Assembly: GCA_963719085.1 (NCBI GenBank)
Contig: CAVRAL010000005.1
Location: forward strand, 64,001-128,000
DNA length: 64,000 bases
Origin: a candidate division FCPU426 bacterium
Lineage (GTDB): Bacteria; Oederibacteriota; Muellerivitia; Muellerivitales; Muellerivitaceae
Direction of reading: 5' to 3'
In this document: positions 4,894 to 57,804 of the stretch, piece by piece
Numbering within the stretch: position 1 is the first letter of the stretch
Layout: the number at the start of each line of letters is the position of its first letter
The notes under the pieces: model-generated
What the model was told of the DNA's origin: nothing
What the model saw: the letters and a program-made list of their open reading frames with translations, nothing else
Database searches by the model: none
Translations under genes and position numbers: made by a program

Positions 4894-5003
4894 ACGGAAT
4901 TATTCACTTCACAACGCAAACCCTATTGAAACATTGATGGAGGCTGATGATGCCGATTTTTGGCACAAATATCAGTCTTCATCGGCATTTATCGTTGTTT
5001 CAA
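4894..5003 (-). repeat. Gene-less GxxExxY-type palindromic element (subfamily 1, no insert)
   Basis: Minus strand TTGAAACAACGATAAATGCCGATGAAGACTGAT...ATCAGCCTCCATCAATGTTTCAA plus tail TTGCGTTGTGAAGTGAATAATTCCGT; aligns by eye with 47103-47215 and 21445-21636. Confidence 0.85.
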
Positions 5004-15101: not shown

Positions 15102-16613
15102 ATGCCGACCTTAGGTTCTATTGACGTCGGATCCAACGCCATGCGTTTGGCCGTTGGGTTCGTGGACCGAAACCGCAACCTTCATGTCGTGGAGGATATC
15201 CGCGAGCCGGTTCGTTTGGGACAAGACGTTTTCACCAAAGGTTCCATCAGCCGGGAAACCACCCAAAAAGCCGTGGAAGCTTTCAAACGTTTCCGGGAAG
15301 TGCTCGAACAGCACCAGGTCGTCCAGGTTCGGGCCGTCGGAACCAGCGCCCTGCGGGAAGCCCGCAACCGGGATATTTTCCTCAAAAAAATAGCGCAAAC
15401 CAGCGGCCTAGAGCTCAAGACCATCGGGTCCGAGGAAGAAGCCCTCTTGGTTTACCTGGCTGTCTCCAAAAAAATAGCCCTCGAGGACAAGACCGCCATG
15501 CTGATTGATATCGGCGGCGGCAGCGTGGAAGTGACCCTGGCCCGCAACGCCAAGATTTTGGCCACCGAAAGCTTCAAAATGGGCGCGGTGCGCCTGATGC
15601 AGGTTTTGGAACAAAAAACCTACGGCGAAAAAAAATTCAACCTGATGCTCCAAGAATACGTGGAAGCCGCGCGCAAACGGTTCAATCAAAAATTGGCGGG
15701 GCAAAAAGCGGAAATCTGCGTGGGCACCGGCGGCAACGTGGACGCCCTCTCGGATTTAAAGGGCCAGCTTTTGCGCTCCACCGACACCGGCTTCGTCACC
15801 CAAAAGGAATTGGATCTTTTAATCGCCAAGCTTCGCAAACTTTCCTATGAAGACCGCATCCTGAAGCTACGCCTGCGTCCGGACCGCGCGGACGTCATTT
15901 TACCCGCAGCCATCGTGCTTCGGGAAATTATGAAGGTCGGCAAAGCCACCCGGGTCTACATTCCCCATGTGGGCTTGAAGGAAGGCATCCTGATCGACAT
16001 GGTGTCCGAGCTTCTAAGCGGCAAGCCTCCCCTGCACCGGGACGAGGTATTGGCCGCCGCCAAGTTGCTGGGACAGAAATACCAATACGACGAACCGCAC
16101 GCCCAGCAAGTGGCCAAACTGTCCGTTGAGTTGTTCGACAAAACCAAAAAACTCCACCGCCTGGGCGACGACAACCGTTTGCTTTTGGAAGCCGCCGCCT
16201 ATGTGCATGACATCGGCCAATTCGTCAATTACGCCGCCCATCACAAACATTCCTATTACCTGATCCGTTCCTCACAAATCATGGGGCTCAACGACCATCA
16301 GCTGGAACTGGTGGCCAATATCGCCCGCTACCACCGCAAAGCCGTACCCCTTTTAAAACATGAGTCTTACCGCGCGCTGGAACCCAAAGACCGGGTCCTG
16401 GTCGCCAAGCTCGCTTCCCTTTTGCGCGTCGCCGACGCCATGGACCACGAGCACGCGTCCAAAGTCCAAGGCTTTAAAGTGCAGTATAAACGGCCCCATT
16501 TTTCCGTGACCCTGCGCGGGCATGACGATCTTCTTCTAGAAAAATGGTCCTTGCTAAAAAAATCCGATTTGTTCCAAAAGACTTTCAAGCTTAAATTTTC
16601 AGTAAGAAGCTGA
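15102..16613 (+). CDS. ppx: Ppx/GppA exopolyphosphatase with HD domain
   Basis: IDVGSNA, GTSALREA, DIGGGSVE, DRADVI, HDIG and RYHRK motifs. Confidence 0.95.
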   Translation: MPTLGSIDVGSNAMRLAVGFVDRNRNLHVVEDIREPVRLGQDVFTKGSISRETTQKAVEAFKRFREVLEQHQVVQVRAVGTSALREARNRDIFLKKIAQTSGLELKTIGSEEEALLVYLAVSKKIALEDKTAMLIDIGGGSVEVTLARNAKILATESFKMGAVRLMQVLEQKTYGEKKFNLMLQEYVEAARKRFNQKLAGQKAEICVGTGGNVDALSDLKGQLLRSTDTGFVTQKELDLLIAKLRKLSYEDRILKLRLRPDRADVILPAAIVLREIMKVGKATRVYIPHVGLKEGILIDMVSELLSGKPPLHRDEVLAAAKLLGQKYQYDEPHAQQVAKLSVELFDKTKKLHRLGDDNRLLLEAAAYVHDIGQFVNYAAHHKHSYYLIRSSQIMGLNDHQLELVANIARYHRKAVPLLKHESYRALEPKDRVLVAKLASLLRVADAMDHEHASKVQGFKVQYKRPHFSVTLRGHDDLLLEKWSLLKKSDLFQKTFKLKFSVRS

Positions 16614-16620
16614 GGCATTC

Positions 16621-17053
16621 AACAATGATGGACGCAGATGAACGCGGATGAGAACTATGGAAATAAATGAAATAACGGAAAAGACGATTGGAGCCGCCTA
16701 TAAAGTGAGCAACGCCTTGGGAGCGGGGTTTTTGGAAAAGGTTTACGAAAACGCCCTTTTCCTTGAATTACAAAAAATTGGTTTGAAAGTTAACCGGCAG
16801 CATCCGATTGTCGTCCGATACGAAGCTAATATTGTCGGGGAATATTTCGCGGATTTGCTAGTCGAGGATAAGGTCCTTATCGAACTAAAGACGGTCGAAA
16901 GTCTCTCGTCTATTCATTCAGCACAATGTTTAAATTATTTGAAAGCAACCGGTTTTAATGTGTGTCTTCTAATGAATTTTGCGGAAAGAAAATTGAAAAT
17001 AAAACGTTTAGTGAATCATTTTTAATCTGCGTTCATCTGCGTTCATCATTGTT
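16621..17053. mobile_element. Putative mobile cassette: GxxExxY gene bracketed by 29-bp inverted repeats
   Basis: Left AACAATGATGGACGCAGATGAACGCGGAT (16621-16649), right ATCTGCGTTCATCTGCGTTCATCATTGTT (17025-17053), 27/29 complementary; visibly AT-rich; sits between ppx and the tmk-like genes. Confidence 0.7.
16657..17025 (+). CDS. GxxExxY protein (PD-(D/E)xK nuclease superfamily)
   Basis: LGAGFLEKVYENAL (GxxExxY), ADLLVEDKVLIELK catalytic-type motif, AQCLNYLKATG. Confidence 0.95.
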   Translation: MEINEITEKTIGAAYKVSNALGAGFLEKVYENALFLELQKIGLKVNRQHPIVVRYEANIVGEYFADLLVEDKVLIELKTVESLSSIHSAQCLNYLKATGFNVCLLMNFAERKLKIKRLVNHF

Positions 17054-17073
17054 AATTGAAGGAGTGTTTTATT

Positions 17074-17772
17074 ATGGTCACAAAAGCGAAGCCCAAAGAA
17101 ATTGAAGGCAAGTTGATCGCGGTGGAAGGCCTGGACGGCTCGGGTAAATCCACCCAAATCCGCCTTTTGAAGCGTTGGCTGGAATTGGAAGGCTATAAGG
17201 TTTTTTTCACCGAGTGGAATTCCTCCGAGTTGGTGAAAAAAGCCACCCGTAAGGGGAAAAAGAAAAAACTTTTGACGCCCACCACCTTTTCCTTGATCCA
17301 TTGCACCGATTTCGCCGACCGTTACGAAAGACAAATTTTACCCCTGCTGAAGGGCGGCTATATTGTTTTGGCCGACCGCTATGTCTACACCGCCTTCGCC
17401 CGAGACGCGGTGCGCGGCTGCGATAAGGATTGGCTGCGGAAGCTCTATCGTTTCGCCCGCAAACCCGACATCACCTTCTTTTTCGAGGTTCCCCTGGACG
17501 TCGCCCTGGGCCGCATTTTGGACGGACGGCCGGCCTTGAAATACCACGAAGCCGGTATGGACATGGGCTTTTCCAAGGACCCTTATGAATCCTTTAAAAT
17601 TTTCCAGGGCAAGATTTATGAGGAATACGGGCGCATCTTCAAGGAATTCCCGGCTGAAAAAGTGAACGCCACCGAGCCTTCCGAAATCCAACAGGCCAAG
17701 ATGCGGGACATCGTCAAAAAACGAATCGACCTAAAATCCTTTAAATTGAAGACCCAGGGAGCGCGCGTATGA
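17074..17772 (+). CDS. Thymidylate-kinase-like protein 1 (probable PPK3 subunit)
   Basis: EGLDGSGKST P-loop, ADRYVYT; AAGGAG RBS; ppx operon. Confidence 0.85.
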   Translation: MVTKAKPKEIEGKLIAVEGLDGSGKSTQIRLLKRWLELEGYKVFFTEWNSSELVKKATRKGKKKKLLTPTTFSLIHCTDFADRYERQILPLLKGGYIVLADRYVYTAFARDAVRGCDKDWLRKLYRFARKPDITFFFEVPLDVALGRILDGRPALKYHEAGMDMGFSKDPYESFKIFQGKIYEEYGRIFKEFPAEKVNATEPSEIQQAKMRDIVKKRIDLKSFKLKTQGARV

Positions 17773-18557
17773 GATCCAAACGTTTTTACGGCAAAGGATT
17801 GCCGAATGTGGACCCGAGCCAGCTGAAAGGAACCCTGATTGTGCTGGAAGGATCCGATGGCAGCGGCCGCTCCACCCAAATCGGGCTTCTTCAAAATTGG
17901 CTGGAACGCCGGGGATTCCCCACGGTCGTCGTCGGGCTGAAGCGCTCCGAGTTGGTGGGGGAAGCCCTCGCCGAGGCCATGCGGGGAAACACGCTGAACG
18001 CCATCACCTTGAATCTTTTTTACGCCACCGATTTCGCCGACCAGTTGGAGCGGGTGCTTTTACCGGCCTTGAAATCAGGTTTCGTGGTTTTGGCCGACCG
18101 CTATATCTATACCTTAATGGCCCGGGACATTGTGCGCGGGTCATCTTTGGAATGGCTGAAAGAAATCTACGGCATCGCCCTGGTGCCGGACGCGGTTTTT
18201 TACTTGAACGTCAGCCCCAAGCTTTTGGCCGAACGCAATTTCCGCAAACGGGGATTTTTGGACTATTGGGAATCGGGAATGGACATCCAGCGGGTGGGCG
18301 GCATGTACGATAATTTCATAAAGTACCAGTCCAAGCTGCACCGCATCTTCGAGACGCTTCAAAAAGAATACGCTTTTACCACCATCCAAGGCGGCCGGTC
18401 CGTCCGGGCCGTCTTCAAAGAAATTAAAACCAAGGTGGAAAAGATATTGACCGCTTCCTCCGCGGCGGAAAAGTCGGCCATGGCCTTGGAAATCTCAGCC
18501 GTCACCGTGGAGCCGACCGAGCACCCCTCCGAAAGCGACGACTCCACAGCCAAATAA
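17769..18557 (+). CDS. Thymidylate-kinase-like protein 2 (probable second PPK3 subunit)
   Basis: EGSDGSGRST (Lys to Arg P-loop), ADRYIYT; ATGA overlap with its paralog. Confidence 0.85.
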   Translation: MRSKRFYGKGLPNVDPSQLKGTLIVLEGSDGSGRSTQIGLLQNWLERRGFPTVVVGLKRSELVGEALAEAMRGNTLNAITLNLFYATDFADQLERVLLPALKSGFVVLADRYIYTLMARDIVRGSSLEWLKEIYGIALVPDAVFYLNVSPKLLAERNFRKRGFLDYWESGMDIQRVGGMYDNFIKYQSKLHRIFETLQKEYAFTTIQGGRSVRAVFKEIKTKVEKILTASSAAEKSAMALEISAVTVEPTEHPSESDDSTAK

Positions 18558-21444: not shown

Positions 21445-21675
21445 TTTAACATTGATAAATGCTGATGAAGACTGATGTGTGAAACACAAAAAATCGGGCC
21501 CTATCAGCCTCCGCATCGCTTCCCCATATAGAAGTTAGGGGAGAGCGACATTGTCCCGGGCATCCTCGACTTCGATATAGAGCCCCGGGGCATCAATGTT
21601 TCAATATGTCTTGCTTTGCGAAGTCAATGATTCCGTAAATATTTATCTGCGTAAATCTGCGTCTATCACTGCTAA
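21445..21675 (+). repeat. Gene-less GxxExxY-type element (subfamily 1) with 79-nt insert (21513-21591) and an extra right arm (21645-21675)
   Basis: TTTAACATTGATAAATGCTGATGAAGACTGAT...ATCAGCCTCC[79 nt]ATCAATGTTTCAA...AATGATTCCGT...ATCTGCGTAAATCTGCGTCTATCACTGCTAA. Confidence 0.85.
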
Positions 21676-22494: not shown

Positions 22495-22644
22495 AATTTA
22501 CAATGATGAACGCTGATAAATCCAGAACCTCTGTTTTAGTCATCTGCGTCCGCGTCGCTTCTCCACATAACAGTTAGAGGAGGGCGACATTGTCCCGGGC
22601 ATCCATGACTGCAATAGGGTGCCCCGGGACATCATTGTAAAATT
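22495..22644. repeat. Gene-less GxxExxY-type element (subfamily 2) with 79-nt insert (22552-22630)
   Basis: AATTTACAATGATGAACGCTGAT...CATCTGCGTCC[79 nt]ATCATTGTAAAATT; removing the insert restores 19 nt identical (reverse complement) to the GxxExxY left IR. Confidence 0.87.
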
Positions 22645-26684: not shown

Positions 26685-26789
26685 GGCCCACTCCCCGAGG
26701 CAGAATTGGCTTAAACGGGAGCTCGAACGGAGGGACCTTCGAAAGAAGGCATTACTCCGCTTCTTACACCCGAAGAAGCATCAACAACG

Positions 26790-26943
26790 CTCAAGGCCGG
26801 TCTCCTGACTTGGGAATCTGACGTTCGCCTTCCCGGGCTTTCACCCAGTGGCCGCCTCATTGAAGAGGCCTGAACGGTAGAATTGCTTCCCTTACAGTGG
26901 CGGGTCCGCGCCGGATTCTCACCGGCTTCCCGATCACCTTGAG
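26790..26943 (-). ncRNA. Cobalamin riboswitch (btuB leader)
   Basis: Minus strand GGGAAGCCGGTGAGAATCCGGCGCGGACCCGCCACTGT...GCCACTGGG...GGGAAGGC...AGTCAGGAGACCGGCC. Confidence 0.95.
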
Positions 26944-27015
26944 TTGTGCGTACTTAATACCTGCCTTTTCAAAAACTGTCAACGGAATTTAAATCCTCTA
27001 ATAAAAATTAATTTC

Positions 27016-27172
27016 ACAATGATAAATGCTGATGAAGACTGATATTTGAAAAACACAAAATCAGACCCCATCAGCCTCCGCATCGCTTTTCCATATAACC
27101 GTTAGGGGAAAGCGATATTGTCCCGGGCATCTTTCACTTTGATATGGAATCCCGGGACATCAATGATTCCGT
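27016..27172 (+). repeat. Gene-less GxxExxY-type element (subfamily 1) with 79-nt insert (27080-27158)
   Basis: ACAATGATAAATGCTGATGAAGACTGAT...ATCAGCCTCC[79 nt]ATCAATGATTCCGT; abuts the btuF stop. Confidence 0.85.
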
Positions 27173-33484: not shown

Positions 33485-33584
33485 CCTTCCCCTGGGGGTC
33501 AGGCTTTTTCAGGGGAAGGGGTGGTGAGCTTTTATAAAAAAGGCTCTCCGCCGCTTCTTACACCCGAAGAAGCCGACAATAAAG

Positions 33585-33812
33585 CTCAAGGCCGGTCTCC
33601 TGGCTTGAAAGCTTGCCCTCCGCCTTCCCAGGCTTTTGCCCAGTGGCCGCCTCTTTAAAAAAGAGGCCCGGACGACAATTAGCTTTCTCACAGTGGCGGG
33701 TCCGCGTATCGCCTTCTTTTCAGTTACTTCCTGAAGACGATATGTTCCGTCCCCGGACTTTAAATCCAGGGACTTCACAACCGGAATTTCACCGGCTTCC
33801 CAAACACCTTGA
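33585..33812 (-). ncRNA. Cobalamin riboswitch (bluB-cob leader) with a 74-nt internal insertion
   Basis: Same core as 26790-26943, but 33707-33780 is inserted between TCCGG and CGCGGACCCGCCACTG (minus strand). Confidence 0.88.
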
Positions 33813-33848
33813 ACGATGGTGCCTTGATACTCCGGTTTTAAGGGGAAG

Positions 33849-35791: not shown

Positions 35792-35889
35792 ATTTAACAA
35801 TGATAAACGCTGATGAACGCGGGAATGAAATATCTTAAATCCTATGATTTTCCCAAATCTGCGTTCATCAGCGTTCATCATTGTTAAAT
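35792..35889. repeat. Gene-less GxxExxY-type palindromic element (subfamily 2, no insert)
   Basis: ATTTAACAATGATAAACGCTGATGAACGCGG (35792-35822) / CTGCGTTCATCAGCGTTCATCATTGTTAAAT (35859-35889), 29/31 complementary, 36-nt spacer. Confidence 0.92.
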
Positions 35890-47102: not shown

Positions 47103-47215
47103 TTGAAACAATGATAAATGCGGATGAAGACTGATGTTTGAAACACAAAAATCGGGCTTTATCAGCCTTCATCAATGTTTTAACAGCTCTTGCTTTGCGA
47201 AGTGAATGATTCCGT
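47103..47215 (+). repeat. Gene-less GxxExxY-type element (subfamily 1, no insert)
   Basis: TTGAAACAATGATAAATGCGGATGAAGACTGAT...ATCAGCCTTCATCAATGTTTTAA...TCTTGCTTTGCGAAGTGAATGATTCCGT. Confidence 0.88.
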
Positions 47216-52575: not shown

Positions 52576-52694
52576 CATTTACCGCAAAGACGCAAAGTCC
52601 CCAAGTGAGACAAGAATTTTTTTGGTTCTTGCACAAGACCATTACTTGAAGTCTAAATGATGGCCTTGGCGACTTTGCGTCTTTGCGGTAAATG
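52576..52694. repeat. Intergenic palindromic element (CGCAAAG family)
   Basis: CATTTACCGCAAAGACGCAAAGTCCCCAAG / CTTGGCGACTTTGCGTCTTTGCGGTAAATG, 29/30 complementary. Confidence 0.88.
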
Positions 52695-57489: not shown

Positions 57490-57500
57490 TCGGGCAATTA

Positions 57501-57771
57501 ACCACCAAGGCGCCAAGACACCAAGTTCACCAATCTAAGAAATTCAATTTTTTAAACGGAGCTGCGCGCTTAGCAAAAATCGTCTTTTAAATTCCCCTCT
57601 CCCCTTGAGGGAGAGGGTCAGGGTGAGGGGTAAAAGTTAATTAGATCACCCTCATCCCGTCCTTCTCCCCTCGAGGGAGAAGGAGAAAACCAAGATTCTT
57701 GGCTGATTTTCCAAATGCGTGGTTCCTTTTTTGAATGATTATCTTCCTTGGAGTCTTGGTGCCTTGGTGGT
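57501..57771. repeat. Composite palindromic element (CCAAG family) enclosing a CCCTCTCCC-type REP pair
   Basis: ACCACCAAGGCGCCAAGACACCAAG / CTTGGAGTCTTGGTGCCTTGGTGGT (23/25); inside, inverted pair TCCCCTCTCCCCTTGAGGGAGAGGGTCAGGGTGAGGGG (57593-57630) and CACCCTCATCCCGTCCTTCTCCCCTCGAGGGAGAAGGAGA (57647-57686). Confidence 0.85.
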
Positions 57772-57804
57772 GAAATAGGTTTAATTATAAGATTGGAGTC
57801 ATTC

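Follow-up and report, generated by a model that had tools for sequence, protein, structure and literature searches.

A GxxExxY nuclease gene enclosed by inverted repeats: a candidate REPIN/RAYT-like system with a PD-(D/E)XK enzyme

Introduction

In REPIN/RAYT systems, as described in published accounts (PMC3116915, PMC3337134, PMC5581495, bioRxiv 10.1101/2021.07.10.451892), the enzyme gene is present in single copy between copies of the repeat to which it is tied, and one genome may contain several such repeat families, each served by a gene of its own. The gene-less copies are intergenic inverted doublets, about 70-130 bp in length. The gene descends vertically over long periods, and genomes without it have hardly any of the repeats. 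These features recur in the element described here, a cassette between the genes ppx and tmk of a bacterial genome (G000). It differs from REPIN/RAYT systems in that the enzyme is a PD-(D/E)XK nuclease and not a HUH Y1 transposase, of which no gene was found in G000; that each arm consists of tandem 8-10-nt units without self-folding, unlike a REP, which is an imperfect palindrome in its own right; that the two arms of a doublet are no more complementary than arms from different doublets; and that the gene is tightly packed inside one doublet, within an operon.

Intervening sequences of 23S rRNA carry a small ORF of about 120 aa (S23p, a four-helix bundle) between inverted repeats, within the host transcript. 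The cassette resembles them as a small ORF of about 120 aa boxed by inverted repeats within a host transcript, but it lies between ppx and tmk and not in rRNA, holds another gene family (TIGR02436 has no match in G000) and is accompanied by many gene-less copies. With MITEs and their parent TIR transposons, and with mobile insertion cassettes, it shares terminal inverted repeats, autonomous and shorter gene-less copies, and one deletion derivative (in the relative G009). In contrast to MITE/TIR transposon pairs, the search for DDE transposases turned up none with these ends, and the inner sequences of the gene-less copies are unrelated, except in one subfamily, A2, which has a shared loop and flanks. 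PD-(D/E)XK enzymes of mobile DNA include TnsA of Tn7, the homing endonuclease I-Ssp6803I and Hjc-type junction resolvases. The nuclease described here has the same minimal restriction-endonuclease-like fold and a similar size; to our knowledge, none of these enzymes is tied to inverted repeats of phased units.

GxxExxY proteins form a very widespread family with no known function, for which a defined DNA partner is now proposed. The catalogue entry for the family itself gives the function as unknown (PMC3424549). The preliminary description of this DNA knew of no formal account of such a system, and our literature searches on GxxExxY, PDDEXK_3, PF13366 and TIGR04256, and on REPINs with RAYT and endonuclease, likewise found none, nor any paper pairing the family with flanking repeats.

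Results and discussion

Anatomy of the cassette

The window, by which we mean the whole 64-kb stretch of DNA that was analysed (G000:C5:64001-128000), belongs to a genome of 3.04 Mb that is 99% complete. Within it, a 39-nt inverted repeat (16616-16654 and 17020-17058; 85% complementary, spacing 365 nt) encloses a plus-strand gene for a GxxExxY/PDDEXK_3 nuclease of 122 aa at 16657-17025 (38% GC; alternative ATG at 16648). The upstream neighbour, a Ppx/GppA phosphatase gene (ppx, 15102-16613), and the downstream neighbour, a thymidylate-kinase-like gene (tmk, 17074-17772), are on the same strand as the nuclease gene, and a second thymidylate-kinase-like gene follows tmk at 17769-18557. Both arms are made of an outer AACAATGAT followed by GATGAACGCN units. 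In the left arm, on the plus strand, AACAATGAT is outermost, followed by the units GATGGACGCA and GATGAACGCG GATGA, with AGGCA immediately outside; the right arm, on the minus strand, begins at the stop codon and is followed by AAGGAG and the tmk start. The packing is tight on the other side too, where a few bases separate the end of the left arm from the start codon. When the 19-nt double unit was searched with up to three mismatches, 4 matches were found in the 64-kb window versus 0.03 expected. The preliminary description, which had placed this 122-aa gene between 29-bp inverted repeats of tandem 10-nt units, was borne out: the core of the arms matches at 27 of 29 nt (by eye), the cassette is AT-richer than its neighbours (39% GC versus 54% for ppx and 51% for tmk), and it splits a ppx/tmk operon whose two genes lie 2-40 nt apart in six relatives.

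The product of 16657-17025 matches PF13366 (PDDEXK_3) with an E-value of 3.5e-40 and 137.5 bits (cut-off 22), and TIGR04256 (GxxExxY) with an E-value of 1.2e-41 and 141.7 bits (cut-off 35). The residues G24, E27, Y30, D66, E76, K78, Q90, Y94, N107 and R117 are invariant in 64 sequences from relatives; G24, E27 and Y30 form the GxxExxY motif, and D66, E76 and K78 are the catalytic residues of D...ExK. The predicted structure (pLDDT 96.8) shows a minimal restriction-endonuclease-like fold, and its best structural matches are all PD-(D/E)XK nucleases, among them the BpuSI nuclease domain and 3ijm (VIA-align Z 8.6 each), Cas4 SSO0001 (8.3) and Hjc (7.0), scores that fall in the tool's own 'common arrangement' range. 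A sequence search of the PDB gave no relative, the best match being partial with an E-value of 0.016. Because D66, E76 and K78 are invariant and the restriction-endonuclease-like model is confident, the nuclease looks active.

Arm families and resident genes in the host genome

Four GxxExxY genes are present in G000; all four are bracketed by inverted arms and lie in sense orientation between co-directional genes. The window cassette is the one gene of family A, which numbers 133 arms genome-wide, as against 0 for the reversed pattern. Families B and C have 47 and 44 arms, again with 0 for the reversed patterns, and the arms form 36 (A), 18 (B) and 15 (C) inverted pairs; 35 of the family-A pairs measure 71-217 bp, and the remaining one is the 431-bp gene copy. 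Family B (CACCAAGR units) also has one gene, at C4:972859, and family C (CGCAAAGA and CGCTAAGA units) has two, at C4:283823 and C4:693749. The latter gene, C4:693749-694099, has an in-frame TGA and, among the gene-bearing copies, the lowest likeness between its arms (0.71); it may be a pseudogene. Two traits of REPINs are found here: hairpin-capable intergenic inverted doublets, in the numbers just given, and about one gene per family (A one, B one, C two with the TGA-containing gene included).

At C4:1219859-1220542, a 154-aa ORF without a Pfam family (L182:949-1413, minus strand) lies between family-C arms in the place of the GxxExxY gene; its Atlas neighbours are unnamed bacterial and phage clusters (score 0.97).

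The preliminary description had supposed that the repeats spread without a classical transposase. Four transposase families were searched: Y1_Tnp (PF01797), DDE_Tnp_1 and TnpB have no match in the 99% complete genome, while PF01797, as a control, found matches in 6 of 14 genomes. The fourth, rve, has a single match at C1:1141950, about 25 kb from the nearest listed arm, in line with the supposition as far as these families go. The four-helix-bundle protein of rRNA intervening sequences (TIGR02436), considered as an alternative cargo, has no match in G000. Excision products were also considered, on the strength of gene-skipping 'joints' in public contigs; these carry other letters between the arms and are therefore gene-less doublets of other loci.

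Gene-less copies in the window

Six gene-less copies of the repeat had been described in the window. All six are present and all are intergenic, but they are not uniform, falling into canonical, A2 and insert-broken types. The canonical family-A doublet is at 35792-35889 and folds strongly as single-stranded DNA (-32 kcal/mol, z -10.6). The doublets at 4894-5003 (a weak hairpin, z -1.6) and 47103-47215 (z -2.1) belong to subfamily A2, whose unit letters differ from those of family A (GATAAATGCC GATGAAGACT) and within which the outer flanks are conserved. The other three are broken by a two-hairpin insert: 21445-21675 has an A2-like left and an A-like right arm with about 80 nt of insert between them, 22495-22644 has a family-A left arm and a truncated, partly kept right arm, and 27016-27172 has an A2-like left arm and a short right end. 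The sites of the first two of these are empty in the relative G001. Two further doublets in the window belong to the other families, namely a family-B doublet of CACCAAG units at 57498-57774 (277 bp, with a different inserted sequence; the resident gene, C4:972859, is outside the window) and a family-C-like doublet of CGCAAAGA units at 52584-52686 (resident genes C4:283823 and C4:693749).

The insert of about 80 nt, found inside A/A2 arms at about 21510-21595, 22535-22625 and 27075-27160, recurs at other G000 loci and consists of two short hairpins, ...CGCATCGCTTCCCC...GGGGAGAGCGA... and ...CCCGGGCATC...CCCGGGG.... In the A2 doublets, including those at about 12 further G000 loci, the loop and the outer flanks (CTTTGACAAAGCAGGCAAGGCCCG...) are conserved, unlike in A, B and C. 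The behaviour of this subfamily resembles that of a younger burst of MITE type, and no cassette with A2 units was found in the G000 genome. Cobalamin riboswitches (Rfam RF00174) lie on the minus strand at 26778-26956 (96.9 bits) and 33573-33841 (63.9 bits), the former 60 nt from the element at 27016-27172.

Co-occurrence of gene and repeats in relatives and other phyla

We compared G000 with 40 relatives; among these 41 genomes the gene is present in 26 and absent from 15. Flanking inverted repeats scored above every shuffle (maximum 12) at 63 of 67 full-length genes from the 26 genomes, and at 55 of the 67 the score was 16 or more; several relatives also have truncated GxxExxY genes. A second sample comprised 80 loci, 78 of them testable, from Acidobacteriota, Planctomycetota, Verrucomicrobiota, Bacteroidota, Chloroflexota, several Proteobacteria, a cyanobacterium and three archaeal bins; since the query was a 22-sequence alignment of one protein subfamily, the sample is limited to that subfamily. 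Here 43 of 78 loci exceeded the shuffle maximum of 13, and many of the lower-scoring loci have the same CNCNAAG or CNCAGAG units. In both samples the well-scoring arms are all made of phased units. The layout of autonomous and gene-less copies proposed in the preliminary description is real, with repeats at 4/4 genes in G000, 63/67 in relatives and at least 43/78 in many phyla. Where enough context was available, the GC content of the cassette was below that of its flanks in 31 of 31 cases (mean difference 12.8 points); by a crude longest-ORF rule, both neighbours are on the strand of the gene in 21 of these 31 cassettes and both on the opposite strand in 1. A cultured carrier is Brevundimonas kwangchunensis JCM 12928, with a single cassette and some six gene-less doublets.

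Arm type and protein are linked. On a tree of 64 proteins, the unit class of the arms takes 10 changes, compared with 25-32 in the ten printed of 200 shuffles, in agreement with the predicted covariation of repeat sequence and protein phylogeny. The genome label takes 54 changes on the same tree, and arm type therefore tracks the protein lineage and not the host. Such covariation is expected whenever gene and arms are linked and the cassette is inherited as a unit; gene-less arms that match the resident cassette are stronger evidence. Arms of type GATRAACGCNGATRAACGC number 69 in G000, 34 in G015, 25 in G013, 22 in G019, 10 in G006 and 9 in G014, with at most 4 elsewhere, and cassettes of type A are found in G000, G015, G014 and G013, with related GATGAATG types in G019 and G006. 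Arms of type GATRAATGRGAT number 17 in G006, 15 in G005, 13 in G020, 8 in G024, 7 in G015 and 6 in G019, with none in G000 and at most 2 elsewhere; as the relatives are kin, counts across genomes are not independent. For this second type the match with each genome's own cassette is exact to the base, the gene-less arms being mostly GATGAATGAGAT in G006 (17 arms), GATGAATGGGAT in G005 (15) and GATGCATGGGAT in G020 (13). Matches to the B. kwangchunensis cassette unit number 31 in that species and 2 in B. intermedia, whose own cassette has other units.

Genomes that lack the gene do not carry the repeat at equal frequency; an equal frequency would have spoken against the preliminary proposal. In the 15 gene-free relatives, counts for four arm families are 0, except for G001 (4, family B) and G007 (2, family A). 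G001, which is the sister of G000 within the same genus, lacks the gene; its family-A arm count is 0, and two of the window sites are empty there. Arm families without a matching resident cassette do exist. G003 has 18 ACAGAGT arms and no ACAGAGT cassette among its four, G021 has 88 CACCAAG arms and two cassettes with CGCCAAG and CACAGAGT units, and subfamily A2 in G000 is a third case.

The G021 arms could be followed in the congeneric G010 (70-87% nucleotide identity) in two syntenic blocks, which were chosen as arm-dense; a third G021 block, L184, also has its match in G010. For seven of the eight assessable CACCAAG elements of G021, the corresponding intergenic site of G010 is occupied by an element too, and at all seven the unit type differs, being CGCGRAG, CGCCAAG or CACGAAG/CACAAAG in G010; the CGCGRAG and CGCCAAG types also occur on G010's own cassettes. 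One site is ambiguous, two are filled in G010 only, and no alignment is seen between the loops. The pattern would follow either from repeated hits on permissive sites or from the rewriting of arms at fixed loci. A repeat of about 100 nt other than the arms is found at L183:19265-19372 in G021 and at no fewer than 12 places in G010 (74-88% identity).

The proposed system and a passive alternative

We read the cassette and its gene-less copies as a REPIN/RAYT-like gene-plus-repeat system run by a PD-(D/E)XK nuclease, with a probability of about 0.55. What is observed, and forms the basis of this reading, is the anatomy of the cassette, three arm families with resident genes, one site seen with the cassette, without it and with an internally deleted copy, an arm type that tracks protein clade across hosts, gene-less arms that match the resident cassette genome by genome, conserved catalytic residues, and sense orientation within operons. 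In the mechanism that we propose, the GxxExxY product likely binds the phased 8-10-nt units of the arms, possibly as a multimer that engages the tandem arrays on both sides, and would cleave the DNA at these units or close to them. Cleavage followed by copying or repair would then spread the arms or re-homogenise them, and the nuclease would in this way keep gene-less doublets with the same units alive in trans. The gene itself would move rarely and be inherited vertically, as RAYTs are. If the nuclease maintains the repeats, a system of the REPIN/RAYT kind would have evolved a second time, independently and from another enzyme fold. Cassettes of this sort range from Proteobacteria to archaeal bins; if the reading is true, it would account for a large part of the intergenic palindromes that so far have no explanation in many uncultured lineages, and would put short programmable recognition units on offer.

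In a more far-reaching proposal, GxxExxY proteins would drive a novel kind of genomic replicator: the nuclease would read the phased 8-10-nt units and cut its own arms, break repair would copy or rewrite arms at many fixed loci, and the repeats of a genome would be continually re-homogenised to the specificity of its resident nuclease. We offer it as a tentative idea, more doubtful than probable. If true, it would explain why arms are conserved and loops are free, why the arms of a doublet do not covary, and why different families occupy the same intergenic sites in congeneric species (7/8, G021 versus G010).

Cassette and doublets might instead be passive, moved or maintained by some other enzyme, for example a host recombinase, a repair pathway or an IS in trans, with the nuclease as cargo, perhaps in defence or addiction. 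The arm families that lack a matching cassette (G003, G021, A2) fit such an account, as does the 154-aa non-GxxExxY ORF between family-C arms at C4:1219859-1220542. Four observations make it improbable, however: GxxExxY is the only gene systematically inside the arms, in G000 as in the relatives; arms are nearly absent from gene-free genomes; variants of the arms agree with the resident cassette base for base; and the four transposase families searched yielded only one rve match.

Arms as probable sequence-specific sites

Information in the arms is periodic, with fixed letters alternating with free ones, and the loops of the A, B and C doublets are unrelated. Position-specific, periodic conservation of the arms together with unrelated loops fits protein sites, as judged from the sequences. 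Arms of the same doublet are no more complementary to each other than arms of different doublets: the values are 0.708 versus 0.717 in family A, 0.789 versus 0.796 in B and 0.757 versus 0.777 in C, without excess complementarity within gene-less doublets of the three families (permutation p 0.75-0.96), which argues against selection for a hairpin. In the gene-bearing copies, the complementarity of the arms is 0.85 (A), 0.91 (B), and 0.82 and 0.71 (the two C genes). Single arms showed no self-folding (z -0.48 and +1.22). This pattern fits arms that are kept as sequence-specific sites and not as stems.

These data bear directly on another explanation, in which the arms act as RNA or DNA hairpins for termination, stabilisation or RNase III processing and are REP-like elements useful to the host; around the gene, they would insulate the operon from the inserted ORF, as may be compared with 23S rRNA intervening sequences. 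Indeed, the canonical doublet folds strongly, the cassettes lie in sense orientation within operons (21/31 versus 1/31 opposite; 4/4 in G000), and the arms hug the ORF and leave no space for a promoter of its own. Yet complementarity within doublets does not exceed that between doublets, the A2 doublets fold weakly, conservation is sequence-specific and periodic, arm sequence tracks protein clade across phyla, and Rfam has no match at any repeat element (nor is there rRNA in the window). We regard a hairpin role as an unlikely explanation of the repeats.

History of the ppx-tmk junction

The ppx-tmk junction was read in 15 genomes. It holds the GxxExxY cassette in G000, G005, G006, G014 and G015, and an internally deleted cassette in G009, where both arms and N- and C-terminal pieces of the gene are left. 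The empty orthologous sites that the preliminary description proposed to look for are found in six relatives in which ppx adjoins tmk at a distance of 2-40 nt (G001, G002, G004, G011, G013 and G029); in G008, G010 and G012 the gap is 47-197 nt. G000 and G001 are sisters (support 100/100), and G002 groups with G005 (88/85), inside a clade that also contains G009 (100/99).

Monophyly of the five cassette proteins of this junction is not rejected (AU test, p 0.78), and the tree constrained to this clade is better than the tree from the free search. The identities between pairs of these proteins, 0.60-0.72, broadly follow those seen for the flanking genes. Along the lineage, the arms on both sides have changed together, from GATGAACGCN to GATGAATGG to GATGAATGA. 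A recent insertion was considered and set aside in view of the five-genome distribution, the cassette-protein clade and the identities paralleling those of the flanking genes; the cassette is probably an old resident that has been inherited vertically. The simplest reading is that the cassette was inserted once, long ago, has since descended vertically under purifying selection and has been lost cleanly several times; repeated insertion at this junction is a possible alternative.

The internally deleted copy also invites the view that all gene-less doublets are relics of full cassettes that lost their gene by internal deletion, with nothing acting in trans; although G009 has exactly such a relic at this junction and several relatives have truncated genes, this is very unlikely, for none of 64 gene-less G000 doublets contains a gene remnant (tblastn, all E-values above 0.1), no further pseudogene fragments were found in the G000 genome, and, with about 110 doublet-equivalents to 4 genes, cassettes would have had to insert independently a great many times.

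No target duplication was resolved between filled and empty sites, which are only 70-87% identical in the G000/G001 and G010/G021 comparisons. Many copies have an AAGG-like motif at both outer ends. The family-A doublets are asymmetric: AGGC[AT] lies just outside one arm (left in 12, right in 9, both in 0 and neither in 15 of the 36), and in the doublets that have it the opposite end carries AAGG on the same strand. The AGGC[AT] and AAGG ends may be a target resembling a ribosome-binding site, or a signal carried by the element.
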